Source: a virus (Duplodnaviria; Heunggongvirae; Uroviricota; Caudoviricetes). From it: a DNA stretch of 55,363 bases. The notes beneath the pieces were generated by a model. It was not told the DNA's origin. It did not search any database and saw nothing but the letters and a program-made list of their open reading frames with translations. Positions 28,888 through 49,133 of the stretch are shown here, piece after piece (within the stretch, counting starts at the first letter, position 1; every line of letters begins with the position of its first letter). The DNA is taken from the IMG/VR virus record IMGVR_UViG_2721755498_000004; one strand, 5' to 3'. The position numbers and the translations under genes are program-made.

Positions 28888-30345
28888 TTAGGAGCGCCAA
28901 AAAAAACCTGAAAACAATATAATAACAGGATAAATTTCAAGGCGACCAAGAATCATAGCTATGCACATTAAATATTTTGCAATGTCATTAAGCACTCCGA
29001 ATGACGATGCAGTAGCCCCAAAACCTAATCCCATATTATTAATACATGCAGCCACTGTTGCAAATGATGTAAGAAAATCATATCCCATACCATTTAACAC
29101 CAGTATAAAAAACACCGTGAAGAGAGTATAAAGAAAAAAGAAACTCCATACAGACCTCATTACACGATCTGTAACTATCTTCCCTCCTACATTTACACTC
29201 AACAACGCTCTGGGATGAGAAAGCTGATTTATCTCGTGTTTGCTTTGTTTGAAAAGTATAAGAAATCGAAGTGACTTAATTCCACCACAGGTTGAACCTA
29301 TACATCCCCCAAAGAAACTTGACAACAGCAAAAACACTATCGTGTGCGTGGGCCAGTTTGCATAATCCTGCGTAGCTAAACCATTATCAGTGAGCATGGA
29401 GCTGGCAAGAAAAAACGAATGAATAAAACTTCCATGCAAGTCATACATACCTATATGCCAGACCTGGAAAGAGGTAACAATGATCACCCCTAAGGCTATT
29501 AACAGAAAGAAACGAAGTTCAATATCTCTGATTAAAGGTTTTATCGTTTTTCTGCTAATAACAATATACCAAAGAGTGAAGTTGAAAGCCGATAGCAGGG
29601 AAAAAGAACCAGCCACCAGCTCAACCAAATAGTTATTAAAATATCCGATACTCTCGCTATGAGTTGAGAAACCACCAAGCGAAACTGTGGAAATCCCGTG
29701 ACAAATAGCATCAAACAAAGGCATTCCTGCAAGTCTATAACAGACAATACAAGCAATACCTAATAAAGAATAAGTTATCCACAGTGTCCGTGACGTATCG
29801 GCCAGGCGGGGAGTGAGTTTGTCATCCTTAAATGGCCCCGGCATTTCTGACTGATAAAGCTTTGCACCACCAATACCCAATAATGGCAATACTGCAACCG
29901 CCAGAACAATAACTCCTAAACCACCTATAAAATTTAACTGTGACCGATAGTACAAATATGCCCGAGGTAATGAACTAACATCATCAATTACAGTTGCTCC
30001 TGTTGTTGTTATTCCAGAAACCCCTTCAAACAGAGCATCAATGAACGTTAAATTAAGTTCTGAGTCAATCCATAAAGGGAATGCACTAATAACAGAAAAC
30101 AAAATCCAAAACATTACAATTATAATAAACCCATCACGGGTACGTAATTGAATGCCAGATTTCTTAGTTGTATACCACGCTCCGCCACCAATGCAAAAAA
30201 ATATAACGAAAGTTATAAAGAAAACGAACAGGCTTTTTTCTTTATAAAACAATGCTACAACCATTGGTGGCAACATTGAAAGACTATAGAGCCAAACCAA
30301 GAACCCACACATATGAGTAACAACTCTTACATGAGATGTATTCAT
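28888..30345 (-). CDS. trkG: TrkH/TrkG-family potassium uptake protein
   Basis: Polytopic membrane protein; from MNTSHVRVVTH it is 485 aa, the length of K-12 TrkG, which is a known Rac cargo gene; AT-rich relative to neighbours. Confidence 0.9.
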   Translation of the reverse strand: MNTSHVRVVTHMCGFLVWLYSLSMLPPMVVALFYKEKSLFVFFITFVIFFCIGGGAWYTTKKSGIQLRTRDGFIIIVMFWILFSVISAFPLWIDSELNLTFIDALFEGVSGITTTGATVIDDVSSLPRAYLYYRSQLNFIGGLGVIVLAVAVLPLLGIGGAKLYQSEMPGPFKDDKLTPRLADTSRTLWITYSLLGIACIVCYRLAGMPLFDAICHGISTVSLGGFSTHSESIGYFNNYLVELVAGSFSLLSAFNFTLWYIVISRKTIKPLIRDIELRFFLLIALGVIIVTSFQVWHIGMYDLHGSFIHSFFLASSMLTDNGLATQDYANWPTHTIVFLLLSSFFGGCIGSTCGGIKSLRFLILFKQSKHEINQLSHPRALLSVNVGGKIVTDRVMRSVWSFFFLYTLFTVFFILVLNGMGYDFLTSFATVAACINNMGLGFGATASSFGVLNDIAKYLMCIAMILGRLEIYPVIILFSGFFWRS

Positions 30346-30482
30346 ATCTAAATATTCTTTCAATTATAACCACCTTGCTGCAATATTATGATTATACTGT
30401 ATAAAATTTAACTCCTCTTAGATCTTACTTCACTGTTCCTTATGAAACAATCATCAAAATGAATCATATTGTAGTTAAGATT

Positions 30483-30947
30483 TTACTTTAAACACTGCTC
30501 GGTTATGTATTGCTGAGCACCTTCAAGTTGGGCCTGCATCATTACCAGTCGTTCCCGGAGGGTGAAATAATCCCGTTCAGCGGTGTCTGCCAGTCGGGGG
30601 GAGGCTGCATTATCCACGCCGGAGGCGGTGGTGGCTTCACGCACTGACTGACAGACTGCTTTGATGTGCAACCGACGACGACCAGCGGCAACATCATCAC
30701 GCAGAGCATCATTTTCAGCTTTCGCATCAGCTAACTCCTTCGTGTATTTTGCATCGAGCGCAGCAACATCACGCTGACGCATCTGCATGTCAGTAATTGC
30801 CGCGTTCGCCAGCTTCAGTTCTCTGGCATTTTTGTCGCGCTGGGCTTTGTAGGTAATGGCGTTATCACGGTAATGATTAACAGCCCATGACAGGCAGACG
30901 ACGATGCAGATAACCAGAGCGGAGATAATCGCGGTTACTCTGCTCAT
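30483..30947 (-). CDS. rzpR: i-spanin Rz
   Basis: 154 aa, near-identical to recalled lambda Rz ([15 protein letters not shown]...); follows the endolysin gene. Confidence 0.9.
30542..30727 (-). CDS. rzoR: o-spanin Rz1 (lipoprotein), embedded in Rz in the +1 frame
   Basis: 61 aa with lipobox LVVVGC and Pro-rich mature part, entirely inside Rz. Confidence 0.85.
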
Positions 30948-31420
30948 ACCTCAATCTCTCTGACCGTTCCGCCAGCTTCTTTGAATTTTGCAATCAGACT
31001 GTCAGCCTTATGCTCGAACTGACCATAACCAGCGCCCGGCAGTGAAGCCCATATATTGCTGCAACGGTCGATAGCCTGACGGATATCACCGCGATCAATC
31101 ATCGGCAAAGCGCCACGCTCTTTAATCTGCTGCAGCGCTACAGCATCCTGACTTTCTGGAGAAAAATCTTTCAGGCCAAGTTGCTTGCGGTAGGCATCCC
31201 ACCAGCGTGAAAGAAGCTGGTAACGTCCAGCGGCTGTTGATTTGAGTTTCGGATTTAGCGTGACAAGTTTGCGGGGGTGATCGGAGTAATCAGTGAACAG
31301 TCCGCCACCGACAATAACATCATAACCGTGATTTCTGGTTTTCTGCCGTCCGTTATCTGTTCCTTCTGACCATGCCACCATATCAAGGAAAGCTTTACGC
31401 TGGGAATTAAGTGTCTGCAT
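30944..31420 (-). CDS. R: endolysin, lambda R-type lytic transglycosylase
   Basis: 158 aa, near-identical to recalled lambda R (…[32 protein letters not shown]…). Confidence 0.9.
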
Positions 31421-31423
31421 TAA

Positions 31424-31765
31424 TTACTCCTTATGGGCACCGAACTTGTTACCGATGACCCTCATTGCCGCACCACGAATAGCATCAACACCAATCAGCC
31501 CCACCCCACCACCAATGGCAACAGAAAGTGATTTAGGCCATCCGACATACTCAAGCGCGGATGCAAAGGTCAGCGTCAGAGCACCACAAAGCAGAATCTC
31601 AAGCGTTTTTCGTTTCCAGCCGCCGCCACAGCCAAAATAGGCAATGCGCAAACCAGCCATAATAATTGACATAACCACTGCACCCAGCGGCGTATCTCCA
31701 CGCCACCAACTTTGTAAGAGTTCCAGTAAGTCAGGCCAGGAATGAGGGGCATTGTGCATTTTCAT
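31424..31765 (-). CDS. holin (class I-like) with dual-start motif
   Basis: Three predicted TM segments, directly upstream of the endolysin. ATG codons at 31765 and 31759 give MKMHN..., a Met-Lys-Met dual start like lambda S; GGAGG RBS upstream. Track start 31774 is GTG. Confidence 0.7.
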   Translation of the reverse strand: MKMHNAPHSWPDLLELLQSWWRGDTPLGAVVMSIIMAGLRIAYFGCGGGWKRKTLEILLCGALTLTFASALEYVGWPKSLSVAIGGGVGLIGVDAIRGAAMRVIGNKFGAHKE

Positions 31766-31861
31766 AAGCCTCACCTCCGAGAGTTCGGATGGTGCTAAGT
31801 GTAAGATTCAGGCTCTCAGGCTTGCTAACAAGAAGTCGAGGATGTTTCCGGAGCCTAACAA

Positions 31862-31888
31862 CGAAAAAGCCCCGGGACATGCCGGGGC
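31862..31888 (-). terminator. rho-independent terminator candidate after the Q-S moron
   Basis: 7-bp GC stem gccccgg/ccggggc with 6-nt loop, followed on the minus strand by UUUUU. Confidence 0.55.
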
Positions 31889-31982
31889 CAGATGGAGTGC
31901 CAGATTAAGCTTCTGGCGGTATATACTCGTGTTTGATATCGTTAAATCGCCAAAAGTAACAATTCAAACAAAGAGGATTTTT

Positions 31983-32144
31983 ATGTCTGAAAAAAACAAA
32001 CCACAAGGTGAAAATAAACCTCAGCAACCCGTGGCACCAAAACCAACTCCAACACAAAGTACTACAGACTTTGCTACACGTCGTGTTTTTGTTGGAGATT
32101 CTGCCGACTCAGTCATTGAACATATAAAAAAACAGCCGAGATAA
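31983..32144 (+). CDS. hypothetical small hydrophilic protein (53 aa, Pro/Gln-rich)
   Basis: Internal ATG of ORF 31752..32144 preceded by aaagagga RBS; convergent with, and overlapping by 32 nt, the 3' end of the membrane-protein gene. Confidence 0.35.
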   Translation: MSEKNKPQGENKPQQPVAPKPTPTQSTTDFATRRVFVGDSADSVIEHIKKQPR

Positions 32145-32682
32145 ACATCGCCGCTACCGGAGCAAGGATGGTATACATCCTTGCTTTATCGAGACTCGTG
32201 CGGATTTTCTCATTTTCCAACAGTAACTCTCTTGCTGTATCACTCAAGTCAACAAGGCGATACCTTCGTATAAGCGGCAATAACTTATCAGGTCCTAAAT
32301 ATCCTGCATCAGCGAATATTTTAAAGCTCGAGGGCTCCATATCCTTATATTTTTCATGATATAGATGATCAGGAGGGGCATTGATCAGGCCCCTAACCTT
32401 CACAGATAAACCAGTACATACCAAGTAAATAGCGCACCATGTCCATAGTAATGTAAATGTGGTAATTCCGGCGGTGAGAAAATCGAAATTAGTTTTCTGT
32501 GTCAGCAATAAAAAAGATGAACCAATTCCAACAATCTGAATGTTCAGAAGTTTGTATCCATTCTCAACATTGGTTTTGTTAGAAAGATGAATCTCTCGTA
32601 TCGTCTCTTCCCCTTGTTTTTCAAGATAATCGACGAGCTCATCATCTACTCCTAAAAAATAATCTTTAGGTAGTTCTCTCAT
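32113..32682 (-). CDS. uncharacterised membrane protein (189 aa, about 3 TM segments)
   Basis: AT-rich ORF between the Q-like gene and the holin; acidic N-terminus, two central TM helices, soluble segment, C-terminal TM helix. No family recognised. Confidence 0.55.
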   Translation of the reverse strand: MRELPKDYFLGVDDELVDYLEKQGEETIREIHLSNKTNVENGYKLLNIQIVGIGSSFLLLTQKTNFDFLTAGITTFTLLWTWCAIYLVCTGLSVKVRGLINAPPDHLYHEKYKDMEPSSFKIFADAGYLGPDKLLPLIRRYRLVDLSDTARELLLENEKIRTSLDKARMYTILAPVAAMFISAVFLYVQ

Positions 32683-32790
32683 CTCACCTCCACATCCTGT
32701 ACTGAAAACAATTTTACCAGAATGTCTCGATTCTAGGTATTCCGCCAGGAATCGCGCTCCAGAAATGAAACATCAGGTTCGCCAGTACCA

Positions 32791-32820
32791 GAAACAACAA
32801 AACCCGCTCAATGGCGGGTT
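32791..32820 (-). terminator. rho-independent terminator candidate downstream of Q (tR'-like position)
   Basis: Stem aacccgc/gcgggtt with 6-nt loop, followed on the minus strand by ttgttgttt. Confidence 0.45.
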
Positions 32821-32903
32821 CTGGTAAAGTTCATGCGCTTGGTTCGCCTCGCGATACAGCTTTGCGAAGCATACCGGAATTGAAGCAGTTTATGCGTAAA
32901 AAA

Positions 32904-33106
32904 TCAAGCTATTTTTTGAGCAAATGATTCTCGCATGGGAATATATAGGGCATACTCAGCAACAGCCAACCAATTAGCAATTCGCTTTTCGCATGTGCTA
33001 AAACACCACTCAGGATGTGCATCATTTAGCAATTCAGCCATTTTGCGCTTAGTCATCCCCCGTCCTTCATACCGTTGCCGGAGGACACTAATCAATCCAG
33101 GATGCT
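32904..33106 (-). pseudogene. late antiterminator Q-like protein, C-terminal fragment (gene split by IS3)
   Basis: The frame of ORF 32904..33122 reconnects exactly with the fragment at 34365..34707 once IS3 and one GCT copy are removed. Q identity is from position after the nin genes, not a recognised motif. Confidence 0.5.
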
Positions 33107-33171
33107 TGATCTTACCCAGCAATAGTGGACACGCGGCTAAGTGAGTAAACTCTCAGTCAGAGGTGACTCAC

Positions 33172-33471
33172 ATGACAAAAACAGTATCAACCAGTAAAAA
33201 ACCCCGTAAACAGCATTCGCCTGAATTTCGCAGTGAAGCCCTGAAGCTTGCTGAACGCATCGGTGTTACTGCCGCAGCCCGTGAACTCAGCCTGTATGAA
33301 TCACAACTCTACAACTGGCGCAGTAAACAGCAAAATCAGCAGACGTCTTCTGAACGTGAACTGGAGATGTCTACCGAGATTGCACGTCTCAAACGCCAGC
33401 TGGCAGAACGGGATGAAGAGCTGGCTATCCTCCAAAAGGCCGCGACATACTTCGCGAAGCGCCTGAAATGA
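33172..33471 (+). CDS. insE: IS3 transposase OrfA
   Basis: [32 protein letters not shown]... recognised as IS3 InsE; ATG 9 nt inside the track ORF, which starts at GTG 33163. Confidence 0.9.
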
Positions 33472-34334
33472 AGTATGTCTTTATTGAAAAACATCAGGCT
33501 GAGTTCAGCATCAAAGCAATGTGCCGCGTGCTCCGGGTGGCCCGCAGCGGCTGGTATACGTGGTGTCAGCGGCGGACAAGGATAAGCACGCGTCAGCAGT
33601 TCCGCCAACACTGCGACAGCGTTGTCCTCGCGGCTTTTACCCGGTCAAAACAGCGTTACGGTGCCCCACGCCTGACGGATGAACTGCGTGCTCAGGGTTA
33701 CCCCTTTAACGTAAAAACCGTGGCGGCAAGCCTGCGCCGTCAGGGACTGAGGGCAAAGGCCTCCCGGAAGTTCAGCCCGGTCAGCTACCGCGCACACGGC
33801 CTGCCTGTGTCAGAAAATCTGTTGGAGCAGGATTTTTACGCCAGTGGCCCGAACCAGAAGTGGGCAGGAGACATCACGTACTTACGTACAGATGAAGGCT
33901 GGCTGTATCTGGCAGTGGTCATTGACCTGTGGTCACGTGCCGTTATTGGCTGGTCAATGTCGCCACGCATGACGGCGCAACTGGCCTGCGATGCCCTGCA
34001 GATGGCGCTGTGGCGGCGTAAGAGGCCCCGGAACGTTATCGTTCACACGGACCGTGGAGGCCAGTACTGTTCAGCAGATTATCAGGCGCAACTGAAGCGG
34101 CATAATCTGCGTGGAAGTATGAGCGCAAAAGGTTGCTGCTACGATAATGCCTGCGTGGAAAGCTTCTTTCATTCGCTGAAAGTGGAATGTATCCATGGAG
34201 AACACTTTATCAGCCGGGAAATAATGCGGGCAACGGTGTTTAATTATATCGAATGTGATTACAATCGGTGGCGGCGGCACAGTTGGTGTGGCGGCCTCAG
34301 TCCGGAACAATTTGAAAACAAGAACCTCGCTTAG
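33468..34334 (+). CDS. insF: IS3 transposase OrfB (DDE domain)
   Basis: 288 aa, recognised as IS3 InsF; overlaps orfA as expected for the -1 frameshift fusion. Confidence 0.9.
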
Positions 34335-34364
34335 GCCTGTGTCCATATTACGTGGGTAGGATCA

Positions 34365-34707
34365 GCTCTGCCAGCACCTCACTTATGACTCTATCAATAC
34401 ATAACGCCTCTGCATCAGTACAATGCGCCAGCCAGGTCTTTTGCTTGCCATTGATCATCTCTCGCAAAAACGCTTCCAGCTCAGGTTTCTCTATTCCCGC
34501 TTTTTTCATCCTGCGCAGGGCTTCATTGACGGCTGTTTTCGTCAATTTTTTGGATGCCAGCAACTGGTTAAACATATTTCCCGTCTTACCGCCGCCAATA
34601 TACGACCAGCGCCCCCACATGCGCAGTTTTCCCTGAATCCAGACACTTTCCAGCGTGGTGAGACGAAGGTGTTCCCCGCTTTTGCCTGTATTTGTTGGGT
34701 AAATCAT
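34365..34707 (-). pseudogene. late antiterminator Q-like protein, N-terminal fragment (gene split by IS3)
   Basis: Start taken at ATG 34707 (MIYPTNTGKS..., AGGAAGG RBS, ATGA overlap with the upstream stop); the frame runs into IS3 and stops after 5 IS-encoded codons at 34348. Confidence 0.5.
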
Positions 34708-34994
34708 AAATAACCTTCCTTTCTCCAGATTTCTTGTGTGCGAAAAACACCTTCTGCATGCATCAGGCGTAATTCTTCTTTGGTGTAATCGCTGGTTTTT
34801 ACCCGCCCGTCGATTAAATCGTGGCATGAGCTACAGGCAATCGCTGCCTGCATATCGTGTGGTTTTGTCGCTGTTCCGCACGTCCCCGCCAGCCTGTAAT
34901 GCGCCAGCACAGAGGTTTCGGGATTGTGATTGCAGTAGCCAGGGATTCTGATCTGGCACATCTGGCCTTTAGCCGCTTTACGTAAATTCACCAT
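34704..34994 (-). CDS. DUF1364-family protein, YbcO-like
   Basis: 96 aa with Cys cluster (..CQIRIPGYCN..ETSVLAHYR..C...IACSSCHD..) resembling recalled DLP12 YbcO; nin-region position. Confidence 0.7.
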   Translation of the reverse strand: MVNLRKAAKGQMCQIRIPGYCNHNPETSVLAHYRLAGTCGTATKPHDMQAAIACSSCHDLIDGRVKTSDYTKEELRLMHAEGVFRTQEIWRKEGYL

Positions 34995-35593: not shown

Positions 35594-35873
35594 TTCTCAA
35601 TCTCTCGATGGCGCAGCGCAGCAGATGCCAGTTGTTCAGGCTGACGAATAAAGTATAAATAAACTGGCTATGGTGTAAAGCCCCACATAGCATGAACAAA
35701 CACTACATATCAAATAGCTGGTACAAGGATAGAAATACGACATTTATTATTAAAAACGATTAGATAAATTACATTTTAATGTTATGCAAAAGTTCTTTTT
35801 TATCATAACATTTCAATAAAAGCATTACAGATGCAATCATCCCGTCATCATCAATTATTTAAGGTGGTTAAAC

Positions 35874-35960
35874 ATGGAAAATAACAAGTTCGCACATCTC
35901 GCTCCTTTTTTATCCGTAATCCTTTTCGCTTGTTGTTTTATATGGGCATTATTTTTATAA
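35874..35960 (+). CDS. candidate small hydrophobic membrane peptide (28 aa)
   Basis: Hand-found ORF MENNKFAHLAPFLSVILFACCFIWALFL preceded by AAGGTGG at 6-nt spacing, in a 790-bp AT-rich stretch with no other ORF. Confidence 0.35.
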   Translation: MENNKFAHLAPFLSVILFACCFIWALFL

Positions 35961-36406
35961 AGTAGCCACATGATAAGTTGCTGGAATCATATTTCCCACT
36001 CAAGTCATTAACATTTGATAAGATATATCTAAAAGGACGCCTTTACATTATTTATGTGTATATAATTTATTTATATACACAGTAAAGGTATCCTGGGAAA
36101 ATATTTATCGTTAAAAAATACATCATAAATAATTAAGCTGAAATTTCAGAACACAACTAATACACACAATAAGGTTCAGTAACAATAATCTATGTGGACT
36201 ACATCGAGATTTTTTGATTAAACTTTAATAACTTATTCCTAACACACAGAATGCATAAACTAAAAGTAAAACAAATAGTTATACGAAAAACAACCATATT
36301 TATTATATCTTCTCCTCTAATCAACATATCAATTATGTGTTTCATAACAGCTTGACATAACCCTCAAAAACACGCATTTATAATGCATGTTTTTGATGAG
36401 GTGGTT

Positions 36407-36745
36407 ATGACACACAAGAGAATTCCTAAAGATTGGGTAATCAAACGCTCAACTCCGTTCTTCACAAAAGAGAACGTACCTTCAGCGTTATTAACACATC
36501 ATAATACAGCAGCAGGTGTTTTTGGGCAGTTGTGCGTAATGGAAGGCACTGTAACATATTATGGTTTTACTGATGAGAATGCTACTGAACCGGAGATAAA
36601 AGTAGTCATTAATGCTGGCGCTTTTGCAACAAGCCCACCACAATACTGGCACCGTGTTGAACTAAGCGATGATGCTCAGTTTAATATTAACTTTTGGGTC
36701 GCTCCAGACTTCTCGGGCGAAAAAGTCTATAGCACCAAAAAATAG
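36407..36745 (+). CDS. YeaR-like protein (DUF1971)
   Basis: 112 aa from MTHKRIPKDW; shares RSTPF...VMxGxVxYxGxxDE...EP...AGxFAxxPPxxWH...FNIxFxVAP with recalled E. coli YeaR. Confidence 0.65.
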   Translation: MTHKRIPKDWVIKRSTPFFTKENVPSALLTHHNTAAGVFGQLCVMEGTVTYYGFTDENATEPEIKVVINAGAFATSPPQYWHRVELSDDAQFNINFWVAPDFSGEKVYSTKK

Positions 36746-36774
36746 ATGATCATATTAAAAATGCTTTAACAGTC

Positions 36775-36811
36775 AGACCCGGCAGGGCTATCCCCGACGG
36801 GTCTCATTTTT
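36775..36811 (+). terminator. rho-independent terminator after the yeaR-like gene
   Basis: Imperfect 12-bp GC-rich stem (gacccggcaggg / ccccgacgggtc) with 4-nt loop, followed by TTTTT, 30 bp past the stop. Confidence 0.6.
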
Positions 36812-37468
36812 GTAAATATATTGGTTCTACATTGACAGGAGACTTCAACCATAAGAAGTAATCTGAATACTTGAGCAATAAATTTACTTAAGATTAATGA
36901 GCGCACCTTGCCGGACAAAGATAAACCAAGGTAACACCTTTTTTCTAGCCAGTATGTAATCAATCAGAAAGCCGCTCCATAAGAACAACAGCAAGACAAT
37001 AAATTGCCATTACAGCCGCAATAGCTAGCGCACATTTGAGAACCAGCACGACAACCTCCTGTATTGGACGTACACCAGTTCTGATAAATATGAGGCTGTC
37101 TCATCATTGATTCAATATAACTATTGGGTATAGTTTCTGTGATTTTGTTCTGTAGAAATGGAACACAACAACCAGTCACCACCAGCACTTCTTTAAATAC
37201 GCCAAGTCCGACGCAAGCTAACCTTCTAGTCCGCTTTGAGCGAGGAGCGGACCAAACCCGGCCAACTGACTCTTAAAGGGGCCGCAGGAATTTTTCGTCT
37301 GAACTTTCGAAGCTCCTCTCCCTGAAGACAGAAAACTTCTGTGTGCTGTGGGAATATTGAATCTTTGCCTTAGATATAAATAATTTTATCCCGCCTGAAG
37401 TTTACATTATTTTATTTATCTGTTTTTCTAAATCAGACTGCACTCCTTACTTAAATCAGGAGCCAGTC

Positions 37469-38668
37469 ATGCCATTTGTTATTTATGTGTTTACTATCAG
37501 TGCCTTTGCGCTCGGACTCGCGGAATTTGTCCCCATTGGGCTGACAGACGTTATGGCTCAGGGGTTGTGTGTGGGTGTGGAGCAGACCGGGGCAGCGGTT
37601 ACAACCTATGCACTGGGGGCAACGTTCGCGGCACCCGTACTGTCTGCGCTGACAGCAAGCTGGAGCCGGAAAAATGTAATGCTTACAACTGCCGTTGTGT
37701 TTACTGCCGGTAGTCTGGCGGCCGCGTTTGCAGCCACATTACCTCAGCTCCTGTTAGCGCGGTTCATTGCTGGTCTGGGACACGGCCTGTTTCTGGCTGC
37801 GGCATCCAGTACCGCAGCTCGTCTTGCTGGACCGGGTAAAGCAGGCAGAGCGGTGGCTGTGGTATTTGGTGGCTTTACTCTGGCGATGGCAATCGGCGTA
37901 CCGCTGAGTACATGGTTGGGGGGGGTGGTCTCATGGCGTCCAGTTCTCGGCGCTATTGCCGCTTTTGGCGCGTTCGGATTCCTTGGACTGTTGTTCGGTA
38001 TGAAAGATCCCGTACGCAGCGTGCCCGGTGAACATAGTGACTCAGCAATGCAGAATATCGGCATGCTGTTTAACCGTAAGTTGCTGGCCGGCGCGCTGGT
38101 TACGGTGCTGGCGTATGCAGGCTCGTTTACGGCTTACACCTTTATCGCACCTATTCTGACGCAGGTGACAGGGGTTACCGGAGCAACGGTGAGTCTGTTT
38201 ATGCTGGTTTACGGTATTACAGCTGCGGTAGGTAATATTCTTGGTGGGAAACTTACCGACAGCATGGGGGTTAATCGTGCCAATATACTCATCATTAGCG
38301 GCATTGTTGTTGTCGTGCTTGGTATGTGGCTGCTGTCATCCTCACCGGTGAGCATGGGCATTCTGGTTGCGCTGCTGGGTATGGTGACATTTGCCGCAGT
38401 GCCGGCACTGCAGGCCCGTCTGATTGGTGTCGCTGAGCAACATGCTCCTCATGCGCATGGTGTTGCTGCCGGCCTGAATATTGCGGGCTTCAACTCAGGT
38501 ATAGCGCTGGGATCAGTACTGGGCAGCATTACTATAAGCCACGCCGGTATCGTGTATACCGGTATCAGCGGTGCGATTGTTTCTCTGCTCGGCCTGCTGT
38601 TGCTGCTTGCACAAATCCGTCGCAGCCACAGTCGTAAATTTCAACAGGTTAAAATCGTAGGCCAGTAA
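37469..38668 (+). CDS. MFS transporter (12-TM)
   Basis: 399 aa, hydrophobic throughout, Gly/Ala-rich helices typical of major-facilitator permeases; GC-rich relative to phage genes. Confidence 0.8.
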   Translation: MPFVIYVFTISAFALGLAEFVPIGLTDVMAQGLCVGVEQTGAAVTTYALGATFAAPVLSALTASWSRKNVMLTTAVVFTAGSLAAAFAATLPQLLLARFIAGLGHGLFLAAASSTAARLAGPGKAGRAVAVVFGGFTLAMAIGVPLSTWLGGVVSWRPVLGAIAAFGAFGFLGLLFGMKDPVRSVPGEHSDSAMQNIGMLFNRKLLAGALVTVLAYAGSFTAYTFIAPILTQVTGVTGATVSLFMLVYGITAAVGNILGGKLTDSMGVNRANILIISGIVVVVLGMWLLSSSPVSMGILVALLGMVTFAAVPALQARLIGVAEQHAPHAHGVAAGLNIAGFNSGIALGSVLGSITISHAGIVYTGISGAIVSLLGLLLLLAQIRRSHSRKFQQVKIVGQ

Positions 38669-38679
38669 AGGGAGGTTAT

Positions 38680-39372
38680 ATGCTTACCCGTGAAAATATG
38701 CTTAATGGCACATTTGTCAGGGTGCATGAAGCGCTGCTCCCGGCGAATATGCTCTGGGACGCTGAAAAAATACGCGCATCAATGAACTCTACTCTGGAGG
38801 AGCGCCCGACGGGTGCTCCTGTCTGGATATTTGCCTACGGGTCATTGATGTGGAATCCCGTGCTGGCGATTGAAGAAATGCAACGGGCCCGTCTGAAAGG
38901 ATGGCAGCGCAGTTTCTGCATTCGTTTGATATCCGGACGAGCGACTCCTGATGTCCCCGGCAGGATGTTATCGCTCGACGAAGGTGGAATTACCGAAGGT
39001 ATTGCGTTCAGACTGCCGGAATCGACTCTTATTAATGAGCTGGAAATTGTCTGGACGCGCGAGATGATAACCGGTCTTTACCGTCCGGTCTGGGCAGACG
39101 TTTCGCTAGGAAACGGTGAGGAAATTCAGGCGCTGGCTTTCGTATCAGACAGACTGCATCCGCATTATGAACAGGACAATCTTACAGCGACCGTAGCGTT
39201 GAGCATCGCATCTGCCCGTGGAGACATTGGCACGAATGCAGATTATGTATGGAAACTGCAGGCCACTCTGGGTGCGTTGGGAATACGGGATGATTACGTG
39301 AGTGAACTGGCCCTTGCTCTGCATGAGGCTCCCTGTAACGATAAACTTCATCAGCGAGGCGCTTCACTATGA
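38680..39372 (+). CDS. ChaC-like gamma-glutamylcyclotransferase family protein
   Basis: 230 aa with YGSLMWNP motif, collinear with recalled E. coli ChaC; 11 bp after the MFS gene. Confidence 0.7.
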   Translation: MLTRENMLNGTFVRVHEALLPANMLWDAEKIRASMNSTLEERPTGAPVWIFAYGSLMWNPVLAIEEMQRARLKGWQRSFCIRLISGRATPDVPGRMLSLDEGGITEGIAFRLPESTLINELEIVWTREMITGLYRPVWADVSLGNGEEIQALAFVSDRLHPHYEQDNLTATVALSIASARGDIGTNADYVWKLQATLGALGIRDDYVSELALALHEAPCNDKLHQRGASL

Positions 39373-40250
39373 GCCATCTGAGCCATCTGCGAACGTTTCT
39401 TGAGGCCTATCGCTCTGGCTCCTTTTCAAAGGCGGCAGAACTACTGGGCATCACTCAGCCCGCGGCGTCACAGCATATCCAGTCTCTTGAGACTCTGGTT
39501 GGTAAGCGTCTGTTTATCAGGCAGGCCAGAGGCGTGACGGCAACCGAAGCTGCGGATGAGCTTGCCCGCTCAGTTTCACCCTTCATTGATGGTCTGGAAG
39601 AAAAGCTGTCCTCTTTCCGGTCAGGCTCTGTACGCGGGGGAACAATTAATCTGGCAGGACCGCCAGATTTTATTCATTCCCGGCTTGGGACAGTAATGGC
39701 TCCACTAATGAAGGAGGGGTATCGCCTACGCTTTCATACCGGCAATAAGCAACGTATTTATTCCCTTTTGCATGACGGGAGCGCCGATCTCGCTGTTACC
39801 GCATCTATGCCTGATGACCGTCTGTACGGCTATGCACATCTACTGACTGAACGCATGCTCCTTGTTCATGCTCCCGCCATGTCAGAGATCATCGGATCAG
39901 AACCTGGTGCTGAAACGCTTGCCTCATTACCGCTGATTGCTTATGACGAAGAGTTGCCACTGATTAGAGCGCTCTGGGCCTCCATGTTTCAGAGAGCCCC
40001 TGAGATGCAGGCTACATTCACCATTCCGGATTTACGTATTATCCGCGACTTGGTCTGTGACGGCCACGGGTGGACAGTGCTGCCGGATTATCACTGTGAC
40101 AATGACCTGAAAAGTGGTCGCCTGATTTCAGTGACACCTGCAGACCTCGCTCCGACTAATCATCTTTATCTGGTCTGGAACAAAAGGACGGCTAATAACA
40201 GCCGAACCGCCTATGTTCGGGATTACATTCTTAAAACGTTTCCGCGTTGA
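39369..40250 (+). CDS. LysR-family transcriptional regulator
   Basis: 293 aa; N-terminal HTH (..FSKAAELLGITQPAASQHIQSLE..) and LysR-type substrate-binding domain; 4-bp overlap with the ChaC-like gene. Confidence 0.85.
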   Translation: MSHLSHLRTFLEAYRSGSFSKAAELLGITQPAASQHIQSLETLVGKRLFIRQARGVTATEAADELARSVSPFIDGLEEKLSSFRSGSVRGGTINLAGPPDFIHSRLGTVMAPLMKEGYRLRFHTGNKQRIYSLLHDGSADLAVTASMPDDRLYGYAHLLTERMLLVHAPAMSEIIGSEPGAETLASLPLIAYDEELPLIRALWASMFQRAPEMQATFTIPDLRIIRDLVCDGHGWTVLPDYHCDNDLKSGRLISVTPADLAPTNHLYLVWNKRTANNSRTAYVRDYILKTFPR

Positions 40251-40380
40251 TGTTTGAAACGGATGATTGGCGATGCGTATCATAAGTTACGTATGTCCGC
40301 TTCTGGCACAAAGCAGACGCCCACTCTCACGCGAATGCTTTGCCCTTGACTTGCCAACAACCGTATCGCTTGCTCCGCAA

Positions 40381-41673
40381 CTATGGTTTTTTATTAGAAT
40401 CTTCGCCACTAAATAAATTATAATAAATTGATTTTATTAGATATCTGTCAGAATCTATATGGTCAGCACGAGTAGCATGCTCTAATGTTTCAAATGCCAG
40501 AGTATGTGCGGCTTCAGCAAATATCCCAGGCCAACCCTTACTCAGCATCGACAGTCCTTTAAGTACCCTTATCTGAATTTCCCTCATACTGGCACCATCG
40601 CGCGCAACAGGTGAGAAAAAGTCTTCAAGTAGATCGTTATTCTGAAGTGGTGCAACATGTACAGAAGGATATTTCACTTCTATTTCATCAGATTTATTCT
40701 GCGCGTAAGCGGAAAGTATACGTACACCTCTGCCAATGACATCAATGGCGGTTCCAGGATCGTTCACTGCGGGGGAAAGGGCTCGGCAGGCTATTTCGGC
40801 CATGACGCTAAGACAAAATCGGGGGTCCTGAGCAAATGAACGTACATCCGAGACAATAATCGTCTCAAGTAAATCGGTGCTGATTGATGACTCCTGGCCC
40901 TGACTCAGGTACAAAACTGGCGTGGACGGATGTATGAAACTGCCCGGCTGCGCCACGAGGTATACATGACGGGGATCATTGGTCAGCAGCTTGCTGAGTT
41001 TCACCATATCAACATATTCAACATAGCCAATCTTTTTCGGATAAACTGCAACCGTTCCTTTCGGCTGTTCATTGTTCTCAAGCCATGGATATCCGCCGAG
41101 ACAGGGATTTCTTGCTCTCGCAATAAATGTTTCGATGGCCGCCTGTTCTACTTTTGCCGTTGTCTCACCAACCCTCCCCAGAGAGGTCAAATGCTGTATC
41201 CAGCGAAGCAATGTGATGAGGATTAAGGCAATGACAACCAGTGTTACAATGAATAAAATGACTCTCCCCCTTTCTCCATAAGCTCCCATATTGAGGGCAA
41301 TAATCCCTACCAGACTGAAGAGAAAAGAACCGATGAAGGTGGCCAGTACATTTTGTGTGGTGACGTCTTCAACAACTAAACGAGTAGCTCTGGGAGTCAC
41401 ATTAGTAGTGGCTGAACCGTAGGCTGTGACCATGATGCTCAGCGAAAATGTGGTCACTGCCAGCATACTCGATGCCAGTATGTTCAGAATGTTATCGACT
41501 GCTTCCGCACCAACCTTCACGGAAACCGACTCAGGTATCATTGATTTAAAAAGAATTGATAAAAGGGCCGTTATTATTGCGACAATTGCGAATAACGTTG
41601 CCCTGAACCATAGTTTTTTAAATGTCTGCTTCAGCATCCATTTCCAGCGTGAAATCATTCTGCATTCCCTCAT
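40381..41673 (-). CDS. DUF2254-like membrane protein
   Basis: 430 aa; N-terminal block of about 4 TM helices and a large soluble C-terminal domain. Family name from recall. Confidence 0.5.
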   Translation of the reverse strand: MRECRMISRWKWMLKQTFKKLWFRATLFAIVAIITALLSILFKSMIPESVSVKVGAEAVDNILNILASSMLAVTTFSLSIMVTAYGSATTNVTPRATRLVVEDVTTQNVLATFIGSFLFSLVGIIALNMGAYGERGRVILFIVTLVVIALILITLLRWIQHLTSLGRVGETTAKVEQAAIETFIARARNPCLGGYPWLENNEQPKGTVAVYPKKIGYVEYVDMVKLSKLLTNDPRHVYLVAQPGSFIHPSTPVLYLSQGQESSISTDLLETIIVSDVRSFAQDPRFCLSVMAEIACRALSPAVNDPGTAIDVIGRGVRILSAYAQNKSDEIEVKYPSVHVAPLQNNDLLEDFFSPVARDGASMREIQIRVLKGLSMLSKGWPGIFAEAAHTLAFETLEHATRADHIDSDRYLIKSIYYNLFSGEDSNKKP

Positions 41674-41721: not shown

Positions 41722-43725
41722 TTAACGAACCAGATGCAGGAAGTGCAGGTGTTTTTCGTACTGGTCCAGTATGTCATTAATCAGCTGTTCCTGATTCCAG
41801 CCCATTACATCATAATTTTGGCCGCCCTCTTTGAGATAGACTTCAGCGCGATAATATCGATGTTGTTCACTCTGCTGCTCATCATTATCCAGCGCAGCGA
41901 GCGCGAAGGTCGGTGAGTTATACCCGCGAAGCCTCACTTCATATATATAATTCAGCTCGTTGCCCAAATCGACTTCAAGGCGAATACGATCCTCGGCGGC
42001 GTCACTGATGTGGCTTATCGTTCCCTGCTTGTTAAGTTCCTCCTGAACCAGCGTCATGGCGGGTTGGATAATGTCGTCCATAAAACGTTTCACAAGAGAG
42101 CGCTTCGGCAAATACGCGATATTGCGTAACCTTCTCTGCCAGGGAATTGGGTTACGTGCAGCCGTAGGAGCAATAGTCGCCATGCTAAGGCTTTCACGCT
42201 TGGTTAAATCCCGACGCAGGGCTTTTAACAGTCCGTATATGGATATTAATAAGATAACTGAGAAGGGCAATGCACTCGCTATCGTTACGGTTTGCAACGC
42301 ACTCAGCCCCCCTGCGATCAGCAGGGCAATAGCAACAACGCCCATGAGCGATGCCCAGAAAATTCGCTGCCAGACGGGCGTGTTTGCCACCCCACCTGAT
42401 GCCAGAGTATCCACAACCATTGCCCCCGAATCAGCAGACGTTACAAAGAAGACGATGACCATCGCCATTGCAATGAATGACAGCACGGAAGAGAACGGGA
42501 AATGCTCCAGGAAATTAAACAGGGCAAGCGCAACATCCTGCTGAACGGTATTGGCGAGGTCAGTGGCGCCCTGGTTCATGATGAGATAGATGGCGCTGTT
42601 TCCAAACACCGTCATCCACATGAGCGTAAAGCCGGCGGGAACAAACAACACGCCAGTCACGAACTCACGAATTGTCCTGCCGCGGGAAACGCGTGCAATG
42701 AACATACCTACAAACGGCGACCATGAAAGCCACCATCCCCAGTATAATAATGTCCAGCCCCCCAGCCAGTTGCTCGACTTGGGTTCATACGCGTAAAGGT
42801 TGAACGTTTTACTCACCAGTTCCGACAGATAACCACCCGTATTTTCCACAAATGACTTCAGCAGAAGCACAGTGGGACCCAGGCACAAGACCAGCGCCAG
42901 GAGCAACACCGCCAGGCCCAGATTAAGCTCAGACAGGATGCGTATTCCCTTGTCCAGGCCGGACACCACCGAAATCGTCGCTAACCCCGTGATGACCACG
43001 ATCAAAATGACCTGTACCGTTTCATTGATGGGCACGCCGAAAAGATGGTTCAAACCGGCATTCACCTGCAATACACCGTAACCCAGCGATGTTGCAACGC
43101 CAAAGACAGTGCCTATCACGGCGAAGATATCAACCGCGTGGCCTATAGGCCCGTAAATGCGATCGCCGATAATGGGATAGAGCGCAGAACGCAGCGTTAA
43201 AGGCAGACCGTGACGGTAACTGAAAAAGGCCAGAATCAGCGCCACGATGGCATAAATTGCCCATGCGTGCAGACCCCAGTGGAAGAACGTCAGGCGCATG
43301 GCTTCCTTCGCTGCCGCAACGGTCTCTGGAGTGCCGACAGGTGGCGAAAGATAATGCATCACAGGTTCGGCAACGCCAAAGAACATCAGGCCGATCCCCA
43401 TCCCTGCCGAAAAAAGCATCGCGAACCAGGAGTGGTAGCTGAAATCAGGCTGCGCATGGTCTGGGCCCAGCTTTATATCACCGTAACGTGAGAGTCCAAG
43501 GAACGTGACGCTCAGTAAAATCAGGGCCACAGCAAGTATGTAGAACCAGCTGGCATTCGTGAAGATTTGTTGCTGAAGTAGTTTAAAATTTTTGTCGGCG
43601 ACATCCGGGAATACGGCGGCAAAGGCGACAAGAAGGAAAATTAGCAAAGCAGATGTAAAGAATACCGCTTTGTTAATCTGGCTTGTAGACTTCTTTGGGG
43701 TTGTATCATTTTCACTCATAATCAT
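41722..43725 (-). CDS. BCCT-family transporter (BetT-like)
   Basis: 667 aa; 12-TM core with Trp-rich segment (WTLLYWGWWLSWSPFVGMFIARVSRGRTIREF) typical of BCCT carriers, plus a long cytoplasmic C-terminal extension as in BetT. Confidence 0.85.
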   Translation of the reverse strand: MIMSENDTTPKKSTSQINKAVFFTSALLIFLLVAFAAVFPDVADKNFKLLQQQIFTNASWFYILAVALILLSVTFLGLSRYGDIKLGPDHAQPDFSYHSWFAMLFSAGMGIGLMFFGVAEPVMHYLSPPVGTPETVAAAKEAMRLTFFHWGLHAWAIYAIVALILAFFSYRHGLPLTLRSALYPIIGDRIYGPIGHAVDIFAVIGTVFGVATSLGYGVLQVNAGLNHLFGVPINETVQVILIVVITGLATISVVSGLDKGIRILSELNLGLAVLLLALVLCLGPTVLLLKSFVENTGGYLSELVSKTFNLYAYEPKSSNWLGGWTLLYWGWWLSWSPFVGMFIARVSRGRTIREFVTGVLFVPAGFTLMWMTVFGNSAIYLIMNQGATDLANTVQQDVALALFNFLEHFPFSSVLSFIAMAMVIVFFVTSADSGAMVVDTLASGGVANTPVWQRIFWASLMGVVAIALLIAGGLSALQTVTIASALPFSVILLISIYGLLKALRRDLTKRESLSMATIAPTAARNPIPWQRRLRNIAYLPKRSLVKRFMDDIIQPAMTLVQEELNKQGTISHISDAAEDRIRLEVDLGNELNYIYEVRLRGYNSPTFALAALDNDEQQSEQHRYYRAEVYLKEGGQNYDVMGWNQEQLINDILDQYEKHLHFLHLVR

Positions 43726-44059
43726 TTATTCCATTAATTAAATCCGCACTGGATAGAAGGTACTACCTCTCACAGAGTAGCAAAGTTCAACTGGCTATGC
43801 GGGGTTAATCGGAATGCATGGTGGAATGAGTGCCGATACAAATCATCCTATATTCTAAGGAGTTTTAAGTTACTCAGCCTGCCAATTACTGGGGCATTTA
43901 ATTTGTATGATCTGTATCAAAGCTGGGATATAAGTTAAGTGAAGTATATTAGGCACGAATTACCAGCGTCTGCTCTTGGCACAAAGCGGACAACCACGCT
44001 AGCTCTACCCTGTGCCACAAAATGTCAATTTGCATCTGAACTAATGCACTTTAATCTCG

Positions 44060-47915: not shown

Positions 47916-47966
47916 ATCAATAACTCTCAACTGTAAGGGTATTGAAATGTTGGTAATGACTCCAAC

Positions 47967-48470
47967 TTATTGATAGTGTTTTATGTTCAGATAATGCCCG
48001 ATGACTTTGTCATGCAGCTCCACCGATTTTGAGAACGACAGCGACTTCCGTCCCAGCCGTGCCAGGTGCTGCCTCAGATTCAGGTTATGCCGCTCAATTC
48101 GCTGCGTATATCGCTTGCTGATTACGTGCAGCTTTCCCTTCAGGCGGGATTCATACAGCGGCCAGCCATCCGTCATCCATATCACCACGTCAAAGGGTGA
48201 CAGCAGGCTCATAAGACGCCCCAGCGTCGCCATAGTGCGTTCACCGAATACGTGCGCAACAACCGTCTTCCGGAGCCTGTCATACGCGTAAAACAGCCAG
48301 CGCTGGCGCGATTTAGCCCCGACGTATCCCCACTGTTCGTCCATTTCCGCGCAGACGATGACGTCACTGCCCGGCTGTATGCGCGAGGTTACCGACTGCG
48401 GCCTGAGTTTTTTAAGTGACGTAAAATCGTGTTGAGGCCAACGCCCATAATGCGGGCTGTTGCCCGGCAT
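47967..48470 (-). CDS. insB: IS1 transposase InsB
   Basis: 167 aa recognised as IS1 InsB. Confidence 0.9.
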
Positions 48471-48664
48471 CCAACGCCATTCATGGCCATATCAATGATT
48501 TTCTGGTGCGTACCGGGTTGAGAAGCGGTGTAAGTGAACTGCAGTTGCCATGTTTTACGGCAGTGAGAGCAGAGATAGCGCTGATGTCCGGCGGTGCTTT
48601 TGCCGTTACGCACCACCCCGTCAGTAGCTGAACAGGAGGGACAGCTGATAGAAACAGAAGCCAC
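48389..48664 (-). CDS. insA: IS1 protein InsA
   Basis: 91 aa with zinc-finger-like CxxC..CxxC N-terminus, recognised as IS1 InsA. Confidence 0.9.
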
Positions 48665-49133
48665 TGGAGCACCTCAAAAACACCATCATACACTAAATCA
48701 GTAAGTTGGCAGCATCACCTGAAATGTTAACACAAGCTCTCGCTGTAGGGGTATAGCCGAGACCACCGAAGCCCGGAGGTGGTGAAATAAAACCGGGCAC
48801 AACACGAAGGCGCATTTCCGATATCCATAAAGAGTCGGTCTTGTCTGTTAAATTTAAATGGTGGGAGTGCGCCTCCGGTTGTAAATAACGACATTGCTGT
48901 GTGTAGTCCTGGCGGCATCAGTTTTTTTCTTGAAGTTCGGCTGATGTCCGCCCTTTTTAAAGTGAATTTTGTGATGCGGTGAATGCGGCTAAGCGCACGT
49001 GGCACAGTTAAAAGTCATGTTAGTCCTTATTGGTTTGGGTGGGAAAGCCGACTGTAATTGTTAACTGGTTGCAGTCACCTGGAGGCACCAGACACCGCAT
49101 CAACAAAGTTCATTTGTAAAAATGGAGATAATT

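Follow-up and report, generated by a model that had tools for sequence, protein, structure and literature searches.

The window analysed here is a stretch of 55,363 nucleotides from a virus of the class Caudoviricetes (IMG/VR record IMGVR_UViG_2721755498_000004). The subject of this report is a cluster of three genes at positions 37,469 to 40,250, encoding a major facilitator superfamily (MFS) transporter, a ChaC-like protein and a LysR-type regulator, together with the palindromic elements at its edges. The original prediction had described these genes as a small operon for the uptake and catabolism of gamma-glutamyl compounds, clearly more GC-rich than the surrounding phage DNA and carried in a prophage. 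The three open reading frames (ORFs) were found exactly where it had placed them, on one strand and with junctions of 11 and -4 bp:

37469-38668, + strand: MFS transporter gene, DHA1/YdhP-SotB-Cmx-like (ORF of 399 amino acids; Pfam, NCBIfam and PDB matches)
38680-39372, + strand: gene for a ChaC-family gamma-glutamylcyclotransferase paralogue (ORF of 230 amino acids; Pfam match and conserved residues)
39369-40250, + strand: gene for a LysR-type transcriptional regulator (ORF of 293 amino acids; Pfam match), its start overlapping the chaC-like stop (ATGA)

The 11-bp gap between the MFS and ChaC genes contains a GGGAGG Shine-Dalgarno sequence, and the ChaC and LysR genes overlap by the 4 bp of the ATGA. 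With a single strand, short or overlapping junctions and a conserved gene order, the trio has the layout of an operon.

The host is Escherichia coli, in which strain C2 is 99.5% identical across most of the window. Gene context in this strain places the trio inside a Rac-type lambdoid prophage, as had been proposed. There it lies between replication genes (DUF977, YdaT) and the genes for DUF1367, DUF1364 and DUF1133. The DUF977 side holds intR, xisR, recET, racC, kilR, sieB, ydaT and the DUF977 replication-module gene, and the DUF1367/DUF1364/DUF1133 side leads into the lysis genes, trkG, terminase, head and tail genes. Beyond the integrase lies ttcA, which the prophage adjoins. The phage genes of this region are on the - strand, and the trio is antisense to phage early-right transcription. 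It forms the first of two cassettes in a hypervariable cargo slot that extends from the DUF977 replication genes to the hokD/nin region; this is a slot within the prophage whose content varies among related phages, as is typical of moron or cargo genes.

Pfam supported the family assignments made from the translations, with matches to MFS_1 (PF07690, 145 bits), ChaC (PF04752) and HTH_1 plus LysR_substrate (75 and 92 bits, both above cut-offs). All three proteins are of well-known families, and nothing about them implies an unusual mechanism. The ChaC match reaches 122.3 bits against a gathering cut-off of 21, with residues 48-212 spanning profile positions 1-171 of 176. The YGSL motif (Y53-G54-S55-L56) and the catalytic glutamate E128 are invariant in 17 homologues. 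E128 aligns with Glu83 of human ChaC2, and R87, Y134 and Y189 align with its Arg40, Tyr87 and Tyr144; YGSL, Arg40, the conserved catalytic Glu83, Tyr87 and Tyr144 have been described in the human enzyme (PMC7022552). The same active-site residues (equivalents of YGSL, Arg87, Glu128, Tyr134 and Tyr189) are carried by K-12 ChaC. The residues needed for gamma-glutamylcyclotransferase chemistry are therefore all predicted to be present, in agreement with the ChaC-family identity first suggested.

The full-length ChaC domain and the conserved YGSL, Arg87, Glu128, Tyr134 and Tyr189 make the protein comparable with E. coli ChaC (b1218) and eukaryotic ChaC1/ChaC2, and at 230 residues it is similar in length to K-12 ChaC. 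Unlike K-12 ChaC, it falls into a separate paralogue clade located beside this MFS or redox enzymes, and it is placed under putative LysR control. Canonical ChaC loci have chaA/chaB neighbours, which the window clade does not have. Because of the missing chaA/chaB linkage and an identity to K-12 ChaC of 45%, orthology with the chromosomal chaBC-linked ChaC was ruled out, and the alignments identify the protein as a paralogue of the glutathione-specific gamma-glutamylcyclotransferase ChaC with a predicted intact active site. The protein gave no NCBIfam match. When overexpressed, K-12 ChaC lowers cellular glutathione (GSH) in vivo (bioRxiv 10.64898/2026.05.15.725350).

The distribution of the trio was assessed across 5426 complete E. 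coli genomes. It was found in 310 of them, in 309 at an identity of at least 99%, and its flanks were nearly always the same. About 6% of sequenced E. coli would in this way gain a second, differently regulated and putatively glutathione-cleaving enzyme. Outside E. coli, a Klebsiella pneumoniae IncFIB/FII plasmid (NZ_LR890357) matches the segment 37228-40319 at 92.5% identity, with the homology ending sharply at both edges of the segment. The MFS-ChaC-LysR order also recurs on the chromosome of Enterobacter sp. BIGb0383 (ChaC 90% identical at the amino-acid level), on a soil metagenome contig (ChaC 83% identical), in Citrobacter sp. wls619 (52-56% identity) and on the Klebsiella plasmid pJ1, and the flanking genes are unrelated at each of these sites.

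Pairwise ratios of non-synonymous to synonymous divergence (dN/dS) were 0.03-0.10 for MFS, 0.07-0.17 for ChaC and 0.04-0.09 for LysR, indicative of purifying selection on all three genes. Gene order and tight junctions persist even where dS is saturated between clades; together with the selection on all three genes, this gives indirect support to co-transcription of the trio. The recurrence of one gene order amid unrelated flanks in a Klebsiella plasmid, Enterobacter, Citrobacter and metagenomes, with dN/dS between 0.03 and 0.17, also bears out the earlier view of the trio as one functional module. We conclude with high confidence that the trio is a real, selected, LysR-linked mobile operon. 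It serves as an example of accessory cargo common to prophages, plasmids and chromosomes.

To describe the wider family, a metagenome scan with the MFS protein was used; it yielded 80 loci, and the counts given here refer to 28 de-replicated orthologue loci with at least 60% identity. Four arrangements recur: MFS-ChaC-LysR, MFS-LysR, a divergent LysR gene beside MFS-ChaC, and a divergent LysR gene beside MFS alone. A cognate LysR gene (53-81% identity) is adjacent in 19 of the 28 loci, either downstream and co-directional or upstream and divergent; several of the loci where it is not adjacent are truncated contigs. ChaC follows directly after MFS in 12 loci, under both LysR arrangements. The comparison points to MFS-LysR as the conserved core and to ChaC as a frequent partner, linked far above chance. 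MFS-LysR modules without ChaC are found at loci L004, L113-L116, L119, L124, L126-L130 and L158. Together, these arrangements make up an uncharacterised MFS-LysR(-ChaC) module that is widespread, with about 70% conservation across a range from enterobacteria to Burkholderia and Pseudomonas.

The window MFS is 82% identical to the ChaC-less Klebsiella plasmid copy (L004) and 72-74% identical to the Citrobacter/pJ1 clade. As the ChaC-less Klebsiella MFS is 82% identical to the window clade versus 67% to the Citrobacter clade, this version is consistent with secondary loss of ChaC. ChaC paralogues of 55-62% identity were in turn found without this MFS (L007, L008, L090, L091), adjoining genes for LysR/TetR regulators, SnoaL/FMN-reductase, Grx2, OYE, HxlR, GFA and luciferase-like monooxygenase. 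The existence of each part without the other would suit a loose coupling of the genes, in which MFS-LysR would, on induction, pump out an unrelated metabolite or drug, and the ChaC paralogue, a glutathione-turnover enzyme without any substrate in common with the pump, was simply transferred along with it. We regard this as unlikely, given that ChaC stands directly downstream of the MFS orthogroup in 12 of 28 lineages and with two LysR arrangements, and that a junction of 11-26 bp with translational coupling is kept after dS saturation. Such linkage would not be expected of a gene present once or twice per genome.

The neighbours of related modules include OYE reductases (4), DJ-1/PfpI (2) and DsbA-like proteins (2), as well as luciferase-like monooxygenases, glyoxalase, Grx2 and GFA. 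They fit a thiol, redox or electrophile theme only weakly. No conserved fourth gene was found beside the module in 24 loci.

The following putative regulatory features were recorded in and around the trio:

37376-37389, + strand: candidate LysR operator dyad ATAAATAATTTTAT, a perfect ATAAA-N4-TTTAT 93 bp upstream of the MFS start
37373-37390, + strand: extended form of the dyad, GATATAAATAATTTTATC, in the conserved upstream region
37436-37468, + strand: leader hairpin, GACTGCACTCCT pairing with AGGAGCCAGTC, which would occlude the MFS Shine-Dalgarno sequence
39648-39679, + strand: terminator-like hairpin (8-bp stem, then TTATTCATTC) inside the lysR coding region

Of 31 distinct regions upstream of MFS genes, 19 contain the perfect ATAAA-N4-TTTAT dyad, whereas 0.6 would be expected and no more than 5 were reached in any of 500 shuffles. 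The dyad is located at -93 in the co-directional modules and at -115 to -121, within the LysR-MFS intergenic region, in the divergent ones. The 110 bp upstream of the MFS start are conserved even between divergent clades, and in the Citrobacter/pJ1 clade the dyad reads TATAGA...CCTATA, a change that is nearly symmetric across both half-sites. From this pattern, the dyad at 37376-37389 is a probable LysR operator.

The best sub-family of the LysR protein is ArgP/LysG, although the match is weak and far below the sub-family cut-offs; a PDB search with the protein gave CrgA only and was uninformative. ArgP and LysG are regulators of exporters. The window module resembles LysG-LysE and ArgP-ArgO in the HTH_1 plus LysR_substrate architecture and in having an AT-rich dyad upstream of the transporter gene, and its relatives show the classical divergent arrangement. 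In contrast to these systems, the window regulator is encoded at the end of the very operon that it is presumed to control, an arrangement that implies autoregulation, and the dyad has T-N10-A spacing.

A hairpin containing the Shine-Dalgarno sequence is predicted in all co-directional relatives, with stems of different sequence, and the window version carries a mismatch, a weakening G-to-C change (z = -0.5). Sequestration of the ribosome-binding site is not claimed, as the shuffle control was not significant (mean pairing 0.66 versus 0.59; 7 of 31 regions reach <=0.05). Scans for consensus promoters and terminators gave weak matches only, at or close to the chance level. An Rfam search of positions 36700-37600 returned nothing relevant, with no known riboswitch or leader.

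The likely direction of transport was approached through the relatives of the MFS protein. In NCBIfam it scores best with Cmx/CmrA, SotB, AraJ and NepI, in each case below the cut-off. Residues 7-384 align to residues 44-412 of SotB (6KKI, E = 3e-27), and SotB structures are the only PDB relatives; alongside the MFS_1 domain, the protein thus has a full-length match to exporters with 12 transmembrane segments. This end-to-end, 12-segment likeness extends to the DHA1-type exporters in general, namely SotB (PDB 6KKI), the Cmx/CmrA chloramphenicol pumps, AraJ, NepI and YdhP. Unlike SotB, Cmx/CmrA and AraJ, the window MFS stays below each equivalog cut-off and belongs to an orthogroup of its own, whose members are named 'arabinose efflux permease' or 'DHA1' in the sources. 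These members remain about 70% identical from Enterobacterales to Pseudomonas and Burkholderiales, and this level of conservation points to a specific and common substrate.

With nearest relatives that are all exporters, the uptake direction put forward in the original prediction is probably wrong; its recognition of a LysR-regulated, ChaC-centred module in a prophage was right. In the uptake scheme, the MFS would import glutathione or another gamma-glutamyl compound, ChaC would release 5-oxoproline and Cys-Gly, or an amine, as a source of sulfur, nitrogen or carbon, and LysR would induce the operon in response to the substrate. Induction of plant ChaC-like gamma-glutamylcyclotransferases by sulfur starvation has been mentioned (PMC9804317), and the luciferase-like monooxygenase/FMN-reductase neighbours of some relatives resemble sulfur-scavenging gene sets. 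Transporter, cytosolic cleaving enzyme and regulator form a classical catabolic layout, in which the MFS-only versions could use the housekeeping ChaC beside chaA/chaB in most enterobacteria. Against this stand the closest characterised MFS relatives, all of them exporters, and the absence of ChaC from more than half of the related MFS-LysR modules. Since ChaC is optional (12 of 28 loci), it fits the logic of a permease feeding an enzyme less well. In addition, no peptidase or 5-oxoprolinase is linked to the module, and E. coli already imports GSH via an ABC system. Taken together, uptake and catabolism seem less likely than not.

We tentatively prefer a physiology of export and disposal for MFS-ChaC-LysR, with confidence a little short of even. 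The LysR protein, sensing a thiol-related or gamma-glutamyl effector, would bind the candidate ATAAA-N4-TTTAT dyad 93 bp upstream of the MFS start and drive MFS-chaC-lysR transcription. The MFS would export glutathione, a glutathione conjugate or a cleavage product, for which the yeast MFS glutathione exchangers Gex1/2 provide a precedent, and the cytosolic ChaC paralogue would cleave glutathione, or the conjugate, to 5-oxoproline and Cys-Gly. As both export and cleavage would lower cytosolic glutathione or its adducts, ChaC could be an optional reinforcement of the MFS-LysR core, dispensable in many lineages. The module would benefit the lysogen, as a 'moron', and not phage development.

Several observations weigh against export and disposal. 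When a transporter gene precedes one for a cytosolic hydrolytic enzyme, the usual logic of operons is that the transporter brings in what the enzyme acts on, and transport direction is not fixed by family resemblance. The matches to named exporters reach no equivalog cut-off (207 versus 400 bits for Cmx/CmrA, 160 versus 401 for SotB, 139 versus 499 for AraJ). Characterised ChaC enzymes are reported to be GSH-specific, so that activity on conjugates is speculative. The dyad is spaced as T-N10-A and not as the classical T-N11-A, and a terminator-like hairpin, with its stem-loop at 39648-39669, lies within lysR. Finally, other LysR genes aside, no neighbour family occurs in more than 4 of 24 loci.

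Both edges of the cassette coincide with 24-nt palindromes, and a further copy closes the cargo slot behind a second module. The island comprises the following features, in which the palindromes have no assigned strand:

37229-37252, no strand: type B palindrome GTCCGCTTTGAGCGA/GGAGCGGAC, left edge of the cassette and start of the NZ_LR890357 homology
40295-40318, no strand: type A palindrome GTCCGCTTC/TGGCACAAAGCAGAC, right edge of the cassette, end of the Klebsiella plasmid homology and left edge of DUF2254-BCCT
40381-41673, - strand: DUF2254 membrane protein gene, second cargo module
41722-43725, - strand: BetT-like BCCT transporter gene, second cargo module
43968-43991, no strand: type A palindrome GTCTGCTCT/TGGCACAAAGCGGAC, right end of the cargo slot, directly beside the DUF977 flank of the phage

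Three such sites in the window compare with 0.05 expected. Type B has the form GTCCGCTTTGAGCGA/nnAGCGGAC with the centre GAGCGA, and type A the form GTCYGCTnn/TGGCACAAAGCGGAC with the centre GGCACA; the island thus reads B, MFS-ChaC-LysR, A, DUF2254-BCCT, A. On the Klebsiella plasmid, B and A likewise frame the trio. DUF2254-BCCT is an independent mobile pair, present in 1965 of the 5426 E. coli genomes, on plasmids and in IS-rich islands (IS, insertion sequence), and A elements frame it on the E. coli plasmid pMB07152 as well. Its copies are about 94.5% identical in IS-rich chromosomal islands and at least 99% identical in prophages and plasmids. Neither the cassette nor DUF2254-BCCT had a copy in 50,697 INPHARED phage records. 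Further palindromes were mapped at L002 (7930/10995), L094 (2222/5976/9649) and L095 (6285/8501), and also in L296 and L297.

To assess the variability of the slot, viral contigs were scanned with the exact pattern. The scan found at least 120 stretches, of which 80 loci were retrieved and form the basis of the following counts. At least 33 different modules, 0.5-9.5 kb in size, lie between pairs of elements. The DUF977-side flank is present in 55 of the 80 loci and both phage flanks in 39; among arrays with the DUF977 flank at the right, the order B A occurs in 28 loci and B A A, the type of the window, in 5. Elements on the hokD side begin with the same 15 nt (GTCCGCTTTGAGCGA) in all prophages that have the slot, and the rest of their sequence depends on the cargo, in at least 18 versions. 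In elements on the DUF977 side, it is the first 9 nt that differ, in at least 14 versions, and TGGCACAAAGCGGAC that stays the same. Because constant half-sites adjoin cargo-specific halves, the alignments place the breaks in homology inside the elements. Each cassette is in this sense site-bounded, with a short repeat at either edge within which the homology ends.

Slot content varies among otherwise near-identical prophages, and the slot also exists, with different cargo, in the sequenced phages Evi and Tritos. Other arrays carry PD-T7-1, PD-T7-5, DarT/DarG, TIR-domain proteins, PDC-S06, PDC-S15, PDC-S33, PDC-S35 and methyltransferases, and also SDR, glyoxalase, GNAT, NUDIX and ABC/C39 genes. 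In the Qin prophage of K-12 MG1655 (NC_000913.3), an A element and a B-like element at 1645981-1646004 and 1646972-1646995 flank ydfV'/flxA beside relBE-hokD, so that the standard laboratory strain, too, has this cassette layout. Palindrome copies were also seen in non-phage contexts, in Serratia montpellierensis (L007, 6984-7007), L115 (749-772) and L140 (2555-2578), near a ChaC paralogue and MFS-LysR modules; the elements may therefore travel with ChaC/MFS-LysR modules outside prophages.

We hypothesize, with distinctly less than even confidence, that the palindromes are where an as yet undescribed cassette-exchange system, common to lambdoid phages and enterobacterial plasmids, operates; recombination within them would exchange cargo such as the trio, DUF2254-BCCT and anti-phage systems. 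This recombination could be site-specific or of the short-homology type (RecET/Red-type), and the system would represent a temperate-phage analogue of T4 PeSL cassettes or integron cassettes. The promoter-early stem-loop (PeSL) cassettes of T4-type phages are the closest published analogue found (PMC2839356). Shared with these (PMC2839356) and with attC-bounded integron cassettes are short, repeated stem-loop or palindromic motifs that flank variable, non-essential genes, with homology breaking within them. Unlike PeSL, the elements described here are 24 nt long and have neither an attached promoter nor a U-tract. They differ from PeSL and integron cassettes in that they fall into two related types, of which B faces hokD and A faces DUF977, in lacking a linked integrase and a fixed cargo orientation, and in their occurrence in temperate lambdoid phages and plasmids.

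The searches for a mechanism behind the elements returned several negative results. No recombinase was consistently linked to the palindromes, and no empty slot was seen: a synthetic junction of the left flank and the DUF2254 flank matched none of the 5426 E. coli genomes, and the minimum content among the 39 viral loci was 1032 bp. No compensatory changes were seen in the palindrome arms, only Y/R wobble variants. A role as intrinsic terminators was rejected, as there is no U-tract on either strand, and the palindromes are not known to resemble dif/cer, gix, attC, REP or the lambda nut/iteron sequences. A literature search found nothing on the trio or on the palindrome sequence, and nothing describing the elements.

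The slot is also comparable with known prophage morons and hotspots, such as trkG in Rac and the P2/P4 defence hotspots (PMC9122126), in that non-phage genes with their own regulatory region occupy a variable position between conserved phage genes. In contrast to those examples, the cargo here is a regulated transporter-enzyme operon, not a defence or virulence gene, and plasmids and chromosomes carry it too, as a discrete unit. Since the same palindrome-bounded slot elsewhere carries the anti-phage systems and methyltransferases listed above (DarT/DarG as DarTG), the trio might also take part in conflicts between phage and host or between phages, for instance through a collapse or change of the glutathione pool when a phage infects. 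We consider this very improbable. None of the three proteins matches PADLOC, in which no match at E <= 0.01 was obtained for any of the six island proteins; the trio occurs in ordinary chromosomal and plasmid contexts as well; its design is that of LysR-regulated metabolism; and the slot also carries plainly non-defence cargo (DUF2254-BCCT, SDR, GNAT, glyoxalase). In PHROGs, only distant MFS and LysR families were found and nothing for ChaC, whereas DUF1971, DUF2254 and BCCT match almost perfectly.

The operon itself is ordinary accessory cargo, and its palindromic boundaries are the most promising lead from this locus. Identical half-sites of the 24-nt elements frame dozens of cargo modules, many of them known anti-phage systems, and the same elements flank the same cassettes on plasmids, and flxA in K-12 Qin. 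Should the palindromes prove to mediate exchange, new cargo or defence genes could be sought through them, and they would allow gene swapping among temperate phages to be studied.

On GC content, the original prediction was overstated. The contrast is mostly local, against immediate flanks of 36% GC on the left (35600-37468) and 45% in the DUF2254 gene on the right. Compared with the window as a whole, the trio region (53.2% versus 48.3%) is about 1.2 standard deviations above the mean, and 14.6% of equal-length windows are at least as GC-rich; the tail-gene region, at 58-61%, is above the trio. At the 85th percentile, GC content was set aside as a weak mark of foreign origin.

Two insertion elements lie in the window prophage:

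47952-48719, no strand given: IS1, inserted between sieB and kilR and absent there in strain C2
about 32700-34360: IS3-family element, with an rve-domain ORF at 33468-34334

The IS1 copy accounts for spurious matches to the Klebsiella plasmid pJ1. The IS3-family element abuts and apparently truncates the DUF1133 gene (34348-34827), which occupies the late-antiterminator position and of which profile positions 1-114 of 176 are left. Given the IS1 insertion and this truncation, the window prophage copy is probably defective. The lysis region at 30947-34365 also differs from that of strain C2.

Other accessory genes were noted in the same prophage. A TrkG-type potassium transporter of the TrkH family is encoded at 28888-30363 on the - strand, between the lysis genes and the ParB-like/terminase genes. 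The trkG gene is a classical cargo gene of Rac, and with the BCCT transporter the prophage has several ion or osmolyte transport genes. A DUF1971 gene (TehB N-terminal-like, YeaR-like) lies at 36383-36745 on the + strand, and at about 36060-36220, in the stretch of 36% GC, and adjoins the hokD position. It is absent from the related prophage of E. coli strain TW01221 and is therefore probably another small cargo gene, located outside the palindrome-bounded slot. In TW01221 (L005, 9126-9182), IS1 has deleted the span from 44 bp upstream of the MFS start into DUF977, an example of the loss of a whole cargo array.

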